Assembly: GCA_026196495.1 (NCBI GenBank)
Contig: JAPHSY010000024.1
Location: forward strand, 7,604-71,603
Direction: 5' to 3'
Origin: Magnetovibrio sp.
GTDB taxonomy: Bacteria > Pseudomonadota > Alphaproteobacteria > Rhodospirillales > Magnetovibrionaceae
Length of the DNA stretch: 64,000 bases
Shown here: piece by piece, positions 20,479 to 24,645 of the stretch
How positions within the stretch are numbered: position 1 is the first letter of the stretch
How the letters are laid out: each line of letters opens with the position of its first letter
Notes under the pieces: generated by a model
What the model was told of the DNA's origin: nothing
Databases searched by the model: none
The model's input: the letters and a program-made list of their open reading frames with translations, nothing else
Made by a program: the position numbers and the translations under genes

Positions 20479-21858
20479 CTACTTACGCTTGGGCAGCGTT
20501 TGCAGTTTGGCTAAAACGTCTTTGATGTTGGCAGGCGTCATCGTGGCCTGCCACGCGGGCATTTCATCACCAGGATGGCCATGTAAGATTTTATGTAAAG
20601 CTTGCCATGGTTTATCGGTGGCCACGCGACCAATGGCTGGCATGGTGCGAATGGCCCGCCCCTCTTCCCCATGACAGGTTGCGCATAGGGTTAAATAGTA
20701 TTGGGTGCTGCGGTCCGGGTTGCCACGTGCCTCACGGGTGCGAGCATCGATATACTCATTCATATCAACCTGGCCCCGGCTCACAAACACTGCAAGATCG
20801 TAAAAATCGGCATAGTTCAACTTGTGATCCAAGTTGTGTACGTCGTCTTTAAGAACTTTGATAATGGTAGCTGGGTGTGAGCCAATCATGTTGCGGATAC
20901 CGCGGACACCATGAGCTCCTTTGTAGTCCCAACCATGACATTCTATACACCGCCAAGTGCTGGAATTAGCCTCGATCTCTTTGCCTTTGGGAAAAGCTTT
21001 ATGCTTGTCTTTAGGGTAGTTGGTGTCGATTTCGGCTGCCCAATCATCATAAAGCTTACCACCACGTGCAATGGAATAGAGTGTGTCACGTGACGGCAGA
21101 GCTTGTACATAAGCCAAAGTTGTCAATGTGGTATTGACGTCAAAAGCACGTAGCGCCGGCATGTCGTCCCCAGGGTGGCCATTAAGCATCTTGTGCAGGG
21201 CTTGCCACGGGTCATTTCGCGCTGCATCACCCAAGGGCGGGATGGTCTCCATCATGCGGCCATCGCCACCATGACAATTAACGCAGATGGTTGAATAGTA
21301 AGGCGACGACGGTTGCGCTTTGGCCATGGCCCTGCCAGTTGTGCGATCAATAACACGATCCATCGGCACCAAACCGATGCTGACAAAATTGGCAATGTCT
21401 TCCATAGCTTGGTCGTCAAAGACATCTAAGTAGGCATGCTGGGGTTCTTTGAGTTTGGCCTTGATTTTGTTGGGGGCCGTTCCAATCATTCCGGCAATGC
21501 CTTTGATCCCCGTGAAGTTATCACCTTTGGCAAAGTTGCCTTTGTCGCCAAGATAATCCCATCCATGACAGGTTACACAGCGCCATGTTTCAAGTGGTTG
21601 GTCGGCAAGGCGTCCTTCATCGGGATACAAAGGATGGGGCTTCTTAGGGGGTTTCACCGCTAATTCGCGAATCCAATTGTCGTAAAGACGACCGCCAGCG
21701 GCCACAGAAGCCACCATTTTTTGGTCTTCTTGCGAACGGATTTGTTCTTTTTCCTGGGCATGACTGGGCATAATAGACAAAGTCAGTGCTGTTACCACGA
21801 CTGCAGTGCCAACCAGGGTGCTCTTTATTGAGCCAGTGTTCGTTAAGGCTTTGATCAT
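20479..21858 (-). CDS. Periplasmic tetraheme cytochrome c built from two homologous diheme modules
   Basis: Signal peptide (..SHA/QE); CxxCH x4: CVTCH, CVNCH, CIECH, CATCH; repeated GG.LYD.W and PWQALHK.L.GHPG..MP. Confidence 0.9.
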   Translation of the reverse strand: MIKALTNTGSIKSTLVGTAVVVTALTLSIMPSHAQEKEQIRSQEDQKMVASVAAGGRLYDNWIRELAVKPPKKPHPLYPDEGRLADQPLETWRCVTCHGWDYLGDKGNFAKGDNFTGIKGIAGMIGTAPNKIKAKLKEPQHAYLDVFDDQAMEDIANFVSIGLVPMDRVIDRTTGRAMAKAQPSSPYYSTICVNCHGGDGRMMETIPPLGDAARNDPWQALHKMLNGHPGDDMPALRAFDVNTTLTTLAYVQALPSRDTLYSIARGGKLYDDWAAEIDTNYPKDKHKAFPKGKEIEANSSTWRCIECHGWDYKGAHGVRGIRNMIGSHPATIIKVLKDDVHNLDHKLNYADFYDLAVFVSRGQVDMNEYIDARTREARGNPDRSTQYYLTLCATCHGEEGRAIRTMPAIGRVATDKPWQALHKILHGHPGDEMPAWQATMTPANIKDVLAKLQTLPKRK

Positions 21859-21913
21859 AAGGGCCTCTTATCGAATCGTTATTAAGAATGAGCTGGACGT
21901 TATTCGTTTTTAC

Positions 21914-22465
21914 TTAATAGTCCGAGCCTTGGGGCATTTCGTGAACCACACCTTTGTGGCACTGGATACAGTGACCACCATCTTTTTGTGCTTCTTCGTG
22001 CTTGCGACGTGCACGACGACCTTGTTCATCAATCAACATATCGTCGAAATCATGGCAGTTACGGCACTCACGTGATTGGCGATTTTCCATTTTTGCCCAA
22101 ACACGTTTTGCCATCACCAAGCGTTGTGATTCAAATTGCTCTTTGCTGTCAATTGTGCCGAGAATTTCATGCAACACATCCTTATAAGCCAAGATCTTTG
22201 CGATCAGTTTGTCAGGATAATTGCTGGGTACATGACAATCGGGACAGCCTGCTTGGACACCAACGGTGTTTTTGTAGTGAAAGCTCTTTTTGTATTCTTC
22301 ATACGGATGTGTCATGGAGTGACAGCTGATGCAAAATTCTTGGGTGTTGGTGAAGCCAACGGCTTCAACAAATACGACAAGGAAAATTGCAGTTGCAACC
22401 ACACCACCGAGCACACCGCTCCATAAAGTGATGGGTTTTTTCAGCAGATTTAAAATTTTCTTCAC
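21914..22465 (-). CDS. NapC/NirT-family membrane-anchored tetraheme cytochrome c
   Basis: N-terminal TM, TNTQEFCISCHSM, CPDCHVP, SRECRNCH, CIQCHKG; GTG 22465 with GGGAG RBS. Confidence 0.93.
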   Translation of the reverse strand: MKKILNLLKKPITLWSGVLGGVVATAIFLVVFVEAVGFTNTQEFCISCHSMTHPYEEYKKSFHYKNTVGVQAGCPDCHVPSNYPDKLIAKILAYKDVLHEILGTIDSKEQFESQRLVMAKRVWAKMENRQSRECRNCHDFDDMLIDEQGRRARRKHEEAQKDGGHCIQCHKGVVHEMPQGSDY

Positions 22466-22616
22466 GTTTACAAGCTCCCAGAATAAAGCTCGCACGACCC
22501 ATTCTTCTTTCGGAGGTGCGCCTGTGCTGTTTTGGTCTATTTATACACGCAGTTCCACCCATCTGCGCGTTTACACCCGTCGGCTTTATTGCCAATTCTA
22601 AGGTGTTCAACAGTCA

Positions 22617-22650
22617 AAGGTCCCCGCCCCCTTCGGGGAACGGGGACCTT
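22617..22650 (-). terminator. GC-rich hairpin after fccB (weak U-tract)
   Basis: aaggtccccg...cggggacctt. Confidence 0.55.
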
Positions 22651-22696
22651 GTCGTGTTGTCTTCAAAGACTGAGAGGATATCCTCTCACCTTGGGA

Positions 22697-24001
22697 TTAA
22701 CCCCAGGTGTCTTTGCAGATGTTGTTGTACCAGCTGTAAGCAAACTCAACCTCACGGCGGCGCATCTCAGCGGAAGCGTCACCCGGGGTCAAGCCACCGG
22801 CACCCTTAACACCAGCAATGATGTCTTTCTCTTTGTTGTAACGGTATACCGCAGCAACAGAGAAGCCATAATCATCACCAGCAATAGAGTAGCAAGTGTT
22901 CACATAGGACGGTGTGCCAACCGGTTTGCCAGCCATCATGTTGATGATAGCTGCGGCGCACACTTTACCTTGTGAGTTAGCTGAATAGCCAGATTTCGGC
23001 ATTTTGGTTGCTACAGAAGCGTCACCAAGAACGTGGATGCCTTTGTGCACTTTTGATTCAAAAGTGGTTTTGTCGACATCACACCAGCCTTTAGCGTTGG
23101 TCAGACCAGCGATAGAAGCAACAACACCTGCTGTTTGCGCCGGAATGAAGTTGATGACATCGAATTTTTCTTTGCCACCAGCCAACGTTTCAACTGTCAT
23201 AGAACCAGCATCGATACTTTCGATACCACCAGTCGAAGCAGCAGAACGCCACTCAATCAGTGAGTTGTCGGTCTCATAACCGTAGAGGTTTTTCCAAGCG
23301 CCTGTAAACAGACCCATTTTGGAGAATTTGTCTTTACGGTCAATGATAACGACTTTGGACTTCTTCTTATGTTTTTGGAAGTAGTCCGCAACCAAGCTAG
23401 CGCGTTCGTACGGCCCAGGAGGGCAGCGGAACGGGTTAGGCGGAGCAACAATACAGAAAGTACCACCGTCCGGCATGGCTTCCAACTGCTTGCGCAACAG
23501 AGCCGTTTGCGGGCCAGCTTTCCAAGCATGAGGAATCTTGTCGAACATGCTTTCAGTAGCACCATTAATGCCGTCAAGTTTGAAGTCAATACCCGGTGCA
23601 ACAACACAAGCGTCGTAGCCGAAGGTAGAACCACCAGCGGTTTTGACTTTTTTGGCTCCTGCATCGATACCAGCAGCGGTGTCTTTTACAATTTTGACAC
23701 CCATGCTTTTGAGACCATCGAACGTTTGTTCGATTTGGCTCATTTTGCGATGACCACCCAGAACTTCATTCGACATGAAGCAAGTGTGGTAGCTGGCTTT
23801 CGGTTCGATCAAAGTAACGTCAAGGGCAGAGTTGCCCAACTTCAGGTAACGGGCCGTGGTTGCACCAGCGACACCGCCGCCAATAACAACAACCTTACCA
23901 GCAGCTGCGTTAGCAATGGTCGGGGCTGCGAGGGTTGCGCCTGCTGCAACAGCGGCACCACCTGTCGTTTTCAGAAAATTACGACGATTCATTTTGCTCA
24001 T
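22697..24001 (-). CDS. fccB: Flavocytochrome c sulfide dehydrogenase, flavoprotein subunit
   Basis: Tat signal MNRRNFLK; VVVIGGG.AG.T.A; catalytic PFRCPPGPYERASL and NTCYS; MPKSGYSANSQGK. Confidence 0.95.
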   Translation of the reverse strand: MSKMNRRNFLKTTGGAAVAAGATLAAPTIANAAAGKVVVIGGGVAGATTARYLKLGNSALDVTLIEPKASYHTCFMSNEVLGGHRKMSQIEQTFDGLKSMGVKIVKDTAAGIDAGAKKVKTAGGSTFGYDACVVAPGIDFKLDGINGATESMFDKIPHAWKAGPQTALLRKQLEAMPDGGTFCIVAPPNPFRCPPGPYERASLVADYFQKHKKKSKVVIIDRKDKFSKMGLFTGAWKNLYGYETDNSLIEWRSAASTGGIESIDAGSMTVETLAGGKEKFDVINFIPAQTAGVVASIAGLTNAKGWCDVDKTTFESKVHKGIHVLGDASVATKMPKSGYSANSQGKVCAAAIINMMAGKPVGTPSYVNTCYSIAGDDYGFSVAAVYRYNKEKDIIAGVKGAGGLTPGDASAEMRRREVEFAYSWYNNICKDTWG

Positions 24002-24015
24002 AATTTCTTTCCCCC

Positions 24016-24645
24016 TTACTTACGGCTAGCATAGAAGTTGAGAACAGCATTCGTACCGTCATCTCCATGCTTTTCCATCAGATCAGCAAGAGCGCGTTTC
24101 TTTTTACGCTTTTCCTTATCCGACATGTTCGGGTTGTTGTCGATGCTACGTGAACCGGATTTGAAATCCATCAGGTTGTTTTTCAGATACGGCATCATTT
24201 GACCGGCAAGAATAGGATAGTCTTCAGCTGCGAAGCCTTCCTTTTCATGGCAGCTTTCGCACAGGTCTTTAGCAATTGCTTTGCCTTTGCCTGCAGCGCC
24301 ACTGTCGGTGTTTTGCATTGCTACGCGTTCGAACTTTTTACCAGCAAAGAAGCCAGCAATTTTTTCAACTTCAGCCTCGGTGTAGCCCTTGGCGATACGT
24401 TGCATAATTGAAGACTTACGGTTTGTGCCTTCACTATATGCTTTCATTGATTCGACAAGATATTGTTTGTTCATGCCTGCAATGGTTGGCGCGGCCGGAC
24501 CTTGGCTTACGCCGTCCGGGCCATGACAGCCGTTACAGGTATTCGCCAGCATGCTGGCTTCTGCGTCGCTTGCTTGTGCGCTGGAGACCCCGATTAGGCC
24601 AAACAGTACACCCGCAGCGAGAGCATAGGTCATTGATTTATGCAC
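24016..24645 (-). CDS. fccA: Flavocytochrome c sulfide dehydrogenase, diheme cytochrome subunit
   Basis: Signal peptide; CNGCHG.DG.S, CESCH; P.IAGM...Y; immediately upstream of fccB; GGAGG RBS before GTG 24645. Confidence 0.9.
   Translation of the reverse strand: MHKSMTYALAAGVLFGLIGVSSAQASDAEASMLANTCNGCHGPDGVSQGPAAPTIAGMNKQYLVESMKAYSEGTNRKSSIMQRIAKGYTEAEVEKIAGFFAGKKFERVAMQNTDSGAAGKGKAIAKDLCESCHEKEGFAAEDYPILAGQMMPYLKNNLMDFKSGSRSIDNNPNMSDKEKRKKKRALADLMEKHGDDGTNAVLNFYASRK

Follow-up and report, generated by a model that had tools for sequence, protein, structure and literature searches.

In its classical form, flavocytochrome c sulfide dehydrogenase (FCSD) is described as a donor to soluble cytochromes c. 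Because it is usually drawn as a donor to these cytochromes only, its energy yield appears lower than that of SQR; what it does physiologically is still under debate. NapC, CymA and NrfH, classical members of the NapC/NirT family, act as quinol dehydrogenases. NapC/NirT proteins working as quinone reductases have been proposed in lithotrophs. One is cM552 in the hydroxylamine:ubiquinone redox module (HURM: HAO, cytochrome c554, cM552) of ammonia oxidisers, a system for which quinone reduction is proposed and, in Nautilia, operation in the opposite direction (PMC3701875). Another is ImoA, which together with PmcA belongs to the Mto pathway of Sideroxydans lithotrophicus ES-1, where electrons are proposed to pass from a periplasmic cytochrome to the quinone pool (PMC9600427, PMC13390432). 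Meanwhile, NirS-NirT-NirB of Stutzerimonas stutzeri and the fused NirTB provide a NapC/NirT tetraheme and a dedicated periplasmic multi-heme cytochrome c beside the gene of a periplasmic enzyme (10.64898/2025.12.02.691782; PMC8954225), an arrangement that the present locus resembles. No description of a dedicated NapC-type and tetraheme pair downstream of FCSD genes was found in the literature.

The window, i.e. the whole 64,000-nucleotide stretch of Magnetovibrio sp. DNA that was analysed, contains such a pair. The four co-oriented genes that the earlier note had listed, running from fccA and fccB to a napC-like and a tetraheme cytochrome gene, are all present on the minus strand, and the block comprises the following features.

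24016..24645, minus strand: fccA, diheme cytochrome c subunit of flavocytochrome c sulfide dehydrogenase, with a Sec signal
22697..24001, minus strand: fccB, FAD flavoprotein subunit of sulfide dehydrogenase, with a TAT signal
22617..22650, minus strand: intercistronic hairpin, 15 bp, GC-rich and terminator-like, between fccB and the napC-like gene
21914..22465, minus strand: napC/nirT-like gene, NapC/NirT-family tetraheme cytochrome with an N-terminal membrane anchor, start GTG at 22465
20479..21858, minus strand: tetraheme gene, periplasmic tetraheme cytochrome c of 459 aa with a Sec signal and four CxxCH motifs
20401..20449, minus strand: intrinsic terminator, a long stem followed by U7, 3' of the tetraheme gene, which ends the block

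Both Fcc subunits are clear homologues of the FCSD of Allochromatium vinosum (1FCD) and Thermochromatium tepidum (3VRD). FccA has a Cytochrom_C match in Pfam and a hydrophobic, signal-like N-terminus, and it aligned with the diheme subunit of the Allochromatium enzyme (1fcd_C, E 1.2e-31) and with 3vrd_A (E 5e-31). Its likely start is the GTG at 24645 with a GGGAGGA ribosome-binding site upstream, the longest ORF reaching 24660. FccB carries the FCSD central and flavin-binding domains (PF21706, E 4e-45; PF09242, E 6e-28) together with TAT_signal, and matched 1fcd_A over its full length (E 9e-154). In the alignment, Cys74 of FccB coincides with Cys42 of 1fcd_A, which we take to be the covalent FAD attachment site of 1FCD, and the equivalents of Cys161 and Cys337, presumably the redox-active cysteine pair, are kept. 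Judged by its domains, homology, cysteines, adjacent diheme subunit and periplasmic targeting, FccAB is a flavocytochrome c sulfide dehydrogenase. Since the homology is strong and the catalytic cysteines are retained, it is predicted to oxidise sulfide.

The third gene product belongs to the NapC/NirT family (PF03264, E 4e-64, 215.9 bits vs a cut-off of 24.1), with a hydrophobic N-terminal segment and four CxxCH motifs that are invariant across 15 orthologues. We rejected its assignment as NapC proper, as it scored below the NapC and NapC/NirT cut-offs of NCBIfam (NF007906, 181.6 vs 349; TIGR02161, 207.3 vs 310.6) and fell into a separate tree group. In a quick tree, 16 of the 17 fcc-linked NapC-like proteins formed one group (SH-aLRT 90), which stood apart from the nap-operon NapC and TorC-like forms. 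The canonical NapC of this genome is encoded by a different gene, located in a nap operon with napH and napB (contigs C30/C14). Consistent with the earlier note, which saw no nap or nir catalytic genes nearby, a Pfam scan of the large ORFs of the window gave no nap, nir or tor catalytic subunit. The association with nap, tor or nir enzymes in relatives that it had also considered was absent, as none of the fcc-linked copies among the loci examined lies beside such genes.

The tetraheme protein consists of two tandem diheme modules with 41% identity to each other (E 3e-54). In either module a heme domain of the form WRCxxCHGWDY precedes a class I cytochrome c domain (CxxCH ... GHPGxxMP). Met233 and Met433 are invariant, giving one class I His/Met-type domain per module. 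The AF2 model had a mean pLDDT of 83, and a sequence search found no related solved structure. Among 41 relatives, 24 of the 41 family loci have a PF03264 gene no more than 2 kb away. In other lineages the family adjoins other quinone modules (NrfD, 4Fe-4S, cytochrome b fusion), and it also occurs in Mto/Pio-like clusters together with NapC-like, decaheme and MtrB/PioB porin genes; relatives are found in the Mto-like clusters of Sulfuritalea and Rhodocyclales. The family, which is unnamed and widespread, includes di-, tetra- and multi-heme cytochromes that some pipelines label thiosulfate dehydrogenase; many diheme relatives bear this label in the JGI annotation. TsdA and TsdB are indeed diheme class I-like cytochromes with a weak Foldseek resemblance to the tetraheme (E 0.003-0.04). 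A TsdA identity was rejected, because the invariant Cys residues occur only in the four CxxCH motifs and none is left as a heme ligand; the TsdA chains gave no sequence match to the tetraheme at E <= 1. A NirB-type identity was rejected as well. The nirS-nirT partners, one separate (L191) and one fused (L209), are PF09459 (EB_dh) proteins, and L191 is unrelated to the tetraheme (hhalign probability against the tetraheme alignment, 3.7%). As the partner here is not PF09459 and no nirS was seen in the window, adjacent or otherwise, the NapC-like and tetraheme genes were not accepted as a NirT-NirB pair either.

Each of the five other genomes sampled from the genus has the same gene order, as do a sister genus (G007) and two further families of the order (G038, G040). 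The gene order also occurs in four Azospirillum genomes, Roseospira visakhapatnamensis, a Rhodomicrobiaceae MAG and an uncultured alphaproteobacterium, and spans at least six alphaproteobacterial families. Class-wide the four-gene block is rare: among 401 evenly sampled Alphaproteobacteria, 84 genomes carry FccB, and only 2 of these have the block. In one further genome (G024), fccAB is likewise followed by a NapC-like gene and a diheme relative, but the order of the two is swapped. All 16 fcc-linked tetrahemes grouped together in a quick tree, and the tetraheme and NapC-like trees showed a matching two-way taxon division, except for the open position of G038. Calvin-cycle genes flank the fcc block on both sides, an arrangement that is kept in the genus. 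Because of the conserved synteny across several families and the joint tree grouping, one functional chain to the quinone pool is suggested. The functional link in the FccAB-quinone chain that the earlier note had proposed is thereby strengthened, its direction being a matter of likelihood.

Our preferred reading, held tentatively, is that the four genes encode a conserved, periplasm-facing and HURM-like electron-transfer module that would deliver sulfide electrons to quinone. Electrons would most likely flow from sulfide to the FAD of FccB, the hemes of FccA, the 459-aa tetraheme as a periplasmic shuttle, the NapC-like protein and finally quinone. The last protein, a NapC/NirT-type tetraheme anchored in the inner membrane, would exchange electrons with the quinone pool as is typical of its family. 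The electrons of FccAB would enter at the quinone level and then pass through bc1, and they could supply reverse electron flow to NADH for the flanking Calvin-cycle genes. Against this reading stand the class-wide rarity of the block, the conserved terminator-like hairpin between fccAB and the downstream pair, and the quinol-oxidising direction of ImoA and of the classical family members. It is likewise plausible, on a cautious estimate, that FccAB, the tetraheme and the NapC/NirT-type protein form a sulfide:quinone redox module with the NapC/NirT protein as the quinone reductase.

The sulfide-to-quinone module would resemble HURM in that a periplasmic lithotrophic dehydrogenase, a periplasmic tetraheme and a NapC/NirT membrane tetraheme are encoded together, whereas the catalytic enzyme is an octaheme HAO there and a flavocytochrome here. 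The tetraheme gave no PF13435 (Cytochrome_C554) match at E <= 0.01 in Pfam, and therefore the resemblance is one of design, not descent. With ImoA of the Mto pathway it would share the proposed role of a lithotroph NapC/NirT protein that passes electrons from a periplasmic cytochrome to quinones. The NapC-like proteins of Mto-like clusters, however, belong to another tree branch, and their electron source is a porin-cytochrome, not FccAB. If the chain holds, its net reaction (sulfide to quinone) would be that of SQR; the latter is a single membrane-bound flavoprotein, while the fcc route would use at least 8 c-type hemes. The source genome would not strictly need a second route from sulfide to quinone, as it also has a SQR-like gene (C53:11192-12280, E 6e-99). 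In 3 of the 11 module-bearing genomes, one of them closed, FccB was the only SQR/FCSD-superfamily match at E <= 1e-15; these carriers, in which no SQR was found, are G038, Azospirillum TSO22-1 and one Azospirillum MAG.

The fccB-napC gap (22466-22696) as a whole gave an RNA fold with z -4.7. Its 15-bp hairpin is followed by UGACUGUU, a weak U tract, in agreement with the earlier note, which had seen only a weak-U hairpin after fccB. The same hairpin recurs in 7 genomes of the genus and sister genus, where 4 of its pairs have changed on both sides, and the U tracts are better in sister species than here. A hairpin 3' of fccB was present in 13 of the 15 fcc-napC loci examined, the 15 including the 494-nt gap of Roseospira, which was not judged. 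It was absent from Azospirillum sp. ST 5-10, where the nearest candidate start of the napC-like gene lies about 32 nt beyond the fccB stop; the gap is shorter than 100 nt in two further loci. The terminator at 20401-20449 gave a folding energy of -40.3 kcal/mol (z -4.96). The conservation of the fccB hairpin through compensatory changes means that fccAB may in part be transcribed separately. Probably, abundant fccAB mRNA ends at this hairpin, and the downstream pair would be expressed via read-through or from a separate start.

The same synteny and phylogeny would equally fit a possible, if rather doubtful, hub arrangement, in which the NapC-like protein acts as a quinol dehydrogenase and reduces the very tetraheme that FccAB reduces. 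This would create a bc1-independent quinol:cytochrome c branch, with the tetraheme passing electrons on to terminal enzymes, e.g. cbb3 oxidase or N-oxide reductases. Of the NapC/NirT proteins proposed to reduce quinone, only ImoA has been tested in vivo, and it oxidised quinol (PMC9600427); NirT-NirB is the proposed electron donor to NirS (PMC8954225). The class I His/Met-type domains of the tetraheme (Met233, Met433) are also of a type that is often high-potential. However, a bc1-type cytochrome b is already encoded in the genome, the conserved fcc block contains no terminal reductase, and such a hub leaves unexplained why the fcc-linked NapC clade travels only with fccAB. It is unlikely that the genes are mere neighbours, with fccAB as a two-gene unit ending at a terminator and the napC-like and tetraheme genes as a co-inherited but independent quinol:cytochrome c module. 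The fccB hairpin is conserved with good U tracts in some species, and NapC-like and diheme pairs do exist without fccAB (G006, G008, G025, Sedimenticola and betaproteobacteria). Nevertheless, the order is kept across at least six families with gaps down to about 32 nt, the fcc-linked NapC-like and tetraheme proteins each form a group of their own, and G024 again has both kinds of gene after fccAB despite the swapped order.

The Isp hydrogenase that the earlier note had placed in the window is real, a [NiFe] enzyme encoded at 42010-46753 on the plus strand, and a MenA homologue suggests that menaquinone may be made. Electrons could in principle run backwards from H2 through this hydrogenase, quinol, the NapC-like protein and the tetraheme to FccAB, where sulfur or polysulfide would be reduced to sulfide. 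We consider such H2-driven reduction, as suggested in that note, very improbable. Apart from the hydrogenase, which is encoded at a distance of 17 kb on the opposite strand and outside the conserved block, nothing supported it. By standard potentials it would be uphill, because S0/HS- at about -270 mV is far below both ubiquinol and menaquinol. To our knowledge, no FCSD works as a sulfur reductase.

If the sulfide-to-quinone chain is true, it would be the sulfur counterpart of HAO-c554-cM552, with sulfide electrons entering at the quinone level, and a second lithotrophic case, beside ammonia and possibly iron oxidisers, of a NapC/NirT protein feeding the quinone pool. A dedicated membrane partner of FCSD would alter the budgeting of sulfide oxidation in these marine and soil alphaproteobacteria, and the sulfide electrons could support CO2 fixation through reverse electron flow. 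In the three carriers without a detected SQR, it would be the sole route from sulfide to quinone. The module would also place the unnamed, widespread cytochrome family of the tetraheme in a functional context for the first time.

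The fccA, fccB, napC-like and tetraheme cytochrome genes were located on the minus strand from open reading frames, sequence and domain matches, in agreement with the coordinates and orientation proposed in the earlier note.

Genes of the fcc block
fccA, 24645..24016 (longest open reading frame from 24660), minus strand: matches the diheme subunit 1fcd_C of Allochromatium flavocytochrome c sulfide dehydrogenase (FCSD), E 1.2e-31
fccB, 24001..22697, minus strand: TAT signal, FCSD central and flavin-binding domains; match to 1fcd_A, E 9e-154
napC-like gene, 22465..21914, minus strand: NapC/NirT family (PF03264, 215.9 bits), four CxxCH motifs, hydrophobic N-terminal anchor
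tetraheme gene, 21858..20479, minus strand: 459-aa cytochrome with four CxxCH motifs and a signal-like N-terminus

Because of the TAT signal and our reading of the N-terminal sequences, all four products are predicted to face the periplasm. Alignment to 1fcd_A demonstrated that FccB keeps the equivalents of the FAD-linked Cys42 and of the Cys161/Cys337 pair, and the NapC-like protein scored under the NCBIfam cut-offs for NapC and NapC/NirT. The two halves of the tetraheme protein are 41% identical to each other (E 3e-54), and each is composed of a heme domain with the motif WRCxxCHGWDY and, behind it, a class I cytochrome c domain with a terminal GHPGxxMP. Its AF2 model was confident (mean pLDDT 83), and a Foldseek comparison of this model with the PDB gave only domain-level likeness to class I, c4 or TsdA-like domains, none at E <= 0.001. 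No Pfam match to c554 was obtained.

Judged by the names of its close homologues, the source genome belongs in or near Magnetovibrio (Alphaproteobacteria, Rhodospirillales in the broad sense). The block sits between Calvin-cycle genes, with phosphoribulokinase and a LysR regulator on one flank and a LuxR-type regulator, glpX, a second phosphoribulokinase and transketolase on the other, RuBisCO lying further out. This neighbourhood is conserved in the genus, and so is the layout at 17245-27858, where two phosphoribulokinase genes of different types flank the block. Among the large open reading frames scanned with Pfam, none codes for a catalytic subunit of the nap, nir or tor type, in keeping with the statement in the earlier note that nap and nir catalytic genes are not nearby. 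The real NapC is the second NapC/NirT gene of the genome, which adjoins napH and napB and is divided over two contig ends (G000:C30:14782-14961 and G000:C14:1-312 of the source genome); this is an assembly break and the gene is not broken. An SQR-like gene (sulfide:quinone oxidoreductase), a bc1-type cytochrome b and a MenA homologue are also encoded. In three carriers of the four-gene block, namely the closed genome G038, Azospirillum sp. TSO22-1 (G743) and an Azospirillum MAG (G747), FccB is the sole SQR/FCSD-superfamily match at E <= 1e-15. The Isp-type hydrogenase of the window is real as well (42010-46753). Between its small subunit and the HdrD-like Isp2 lies a 221-aa gene (43095-43760) with no Pfam match at E <= 1e-5, whose product is, judged by position, presumably the Isp1 membrane subunit.

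The synteny survey that the earlier note had called for revealed a conserved order. Among the 41 relatives, fccA-fccB-napC-like-tetraheme was present in 5/5 other genomes of the genus, in a sister genus (G007) and in two genomes of other families (G038 and G040); the order in G024 differs, being fccA-fccB-diheme-napC-like. Within the best 80 loci, taken at one genome per species, the same order was found in eight alphaproteobacterial loci, namely those of a Magnetovibrio MAG, four Azospirillum, Roseospira visakhapatnamensis, a Rhodomicrobiaceae MAG and an uncultured alphaproteobacterium. Of 401 evenly sampled Alphaproteobacteria, 84 carried an FccB-like gene and 48 a PF03264 gene, and comparing the coordinates of both tables placed the two genes adjacent only in the source genome and G040. 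Hence, the arrangement is stable in a few lineages and rare across the class. A 632-aa open reading frame of Azospirillum ST 5-10 that looked like a fusion of NapC and tetraheme was rejected as an over-extended frame in GC-rich DNA, its two tblastn matches lying in different frames.

Both the NapC-like and the tetraheme proteins were then placed in trees, which were quick IQ-TREE maximum-likelihood runs with SH-aLRT support only, the supports being moderate. In the NapC/NirT tree (87 proteins), 16/17 fcc-linked proteins formed a single group (SH-aLRT 90), apart from the NapC of nap operons, TorC-like proteins of 380-414 aa, forms of 575-590 aa and diheme-paired copies. All 16 of the 16 fcc-linked proteins in the tetraheme tree (91 proteins) likewise clustered as one (support 84-90), with the same division as in the NapC-like tree, Magnetovibrio and G007 versus G040, Azospirillum, Roseospira and Rhodomicrobiaceae; G038 was unplaced in the tetraheme tree. 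These groupings fit co-inheritance of the napC-like and tetraheme genes with fccAB. The 575-590 aa proteins of L160, L162, L166 and L069 form a well-supported NapC/NirT clade whose members are extended at the C terminus by about 390 aa.

The 231-nt gap 3' of fccB folds strongly (z -4.7), and its RNA fold contains the weak-U hairpin noticed earlier, a 15-bp GC-rich stem-loop at 22617-22650 with a poor U tract behind it in the source genome. The hairpin is kept in G007 and six genomes of the genus with four pairs altered on both sides, and better U runs follow it in G005, G004 and G007. A GC hairpin after fccB is also present in G038, G040, most Azospirillum loci and the Rhodomicrobiaceae MAG; it is absent from Azospirillum sp. 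ST 5-10, in which the nearest candidate start lies only about 32 nt beyond the fccB stop. A canonical terminator lies 3' of the tetraheme gene. A sigma-70 scan of the fccB-napC gap returned no promoter-like site, with an overall site count not above that of shuffles, the sigma-70 model being uninformative for an alphaproteobacterium. Partial termination downstream of fccAB is the likeliest reading of these sequence signals.

A near-length search for the tetraheme family gave 1560 matches (E <= 1e-10), and the family occurs in diheme, tetraheme, hexaheme and longer forms; a plasmid tblastn with one diheme module gave no match. Among the 41 relatives, 24/41 family loci lie less than 2 kb from a NapC/NirT gene. 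In the Chloroflexota MAGs L095, L096, L102, L108, L118, L119 and L122, the gene after the tetraheme codes for a monoheme cytochrome c; next come those for a cytochrome b/4Fe-4S/FlpD fusion protein, a 4Fe-4S protein and an NrfD-type membrane protein. This Anaerolineales cluster recurs, is quinone-linked and is apparently undescribed. In Sulfuritalea and Rhodocyclales, the family tetraheme comes after genes for a monoheme cytochrome c, a NapC-like tetraheme, a 10-heme cytochrome and an MtrB/PioB porin, and Mto/Pio-like clusters of this composition occupy L059:3500-9300, L065, L076 and L077. Common to the family contexts is a periplasmic carrier beside a membrane quinone module.

Other members of the family differ in size or setting. 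At G028:C75:7934-12012 (L033) and G028:C228 (L034), open frames of 790-1143 aa carry several diheme modules in tandem, and the module is also multiplied in P0015-P0023 and P0089; the many proteins of 660-710 aa are probably hexaheme. In Rhodoferax and relatives (L055, L061, L063, L075), the tetraheme gene stands behind a gidA-gidB-parA origin region (parB where annotated, L075). In L055 it precedes genes for a small cytochrome c, a multiheme cytochrome of 665 aa and a protein of 947 aa without a Pfam match. Identification of the tetraheme as a doubled NirB was dropped because the partners linked to nirS-nirT are EB_dh proteins (PF09459), either separate (L191, unrelated to the tetraheme) or NirT-fused (L209). 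In the latter (L209:211-3036, Sedimenticola hydrogenitrophicus, 3' of nirS), NirT is fused to two EB_dh modules (941 aa), while L210:1382-3175 carries NirT with one such module by sequence resemblance (597 aa). Despite the JGI naming of relatives, TsdA was also discarded, because the tetraheme has neither the ligand cysteine nor a sequence match. Since the heme-ligating cysteine by which TsdA is defined is missing from P0129, P0131, P0135 and many other diheme relatives, their JGI name 'thiosulfate dehydrogenase' is probably wrong.

From family properties and the conserved linkage, FccAB should oxidise sulfide, the tetraheme should act as the go-between linking FccAB to the NapC-like protein, and the latter should exchange electrons with quinone. 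Standard potentials are about -270 mV for S0/HS-, -74 mV for menaquinone and +100 mV for ubiquinone, so that transfer from sulfide to quinone is downhill and the reverse uphill. The uphill direction is the one needed by the H2-driven sulfur reduction that the earlier note offered as an alternative, for which we found nothing in favour except the presence of the hydrogenase, 17 kb distant.

Quinone feeding from a periplasmic lithotrophic enzyme by a NapC/NirT protein has been proposed for HAO-c554-cM552 of ammonia oxidisers (PMC3701875) and likewise for ImoA with PmcA in Sideroxydans (PMC13390432); in an in vivo test of ImoA, quinol was oxidised (PMC9600427). A serious rival to quinone reduction is that the NapC-like protein works as a quinol dehydrogenase, so that quinol and sulfide each reduce the tetraheme, which supplies terminal enzymes. 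The quinone-reducing reading is modestly favoured by the Calvin-cycle setting and by 3/11 module-bearing genomes with no further SQR/FCSD-superfamily gene (E <= 1e-15), the call of SQR absence being based on one threshold for a single type III model.

The component families are all known. In the literature searched, genome papers on close relatives included, we found no account of the conserved association that links FccAB to a NapC/NirT clade of its own and to the uncharacterised tetraheme.
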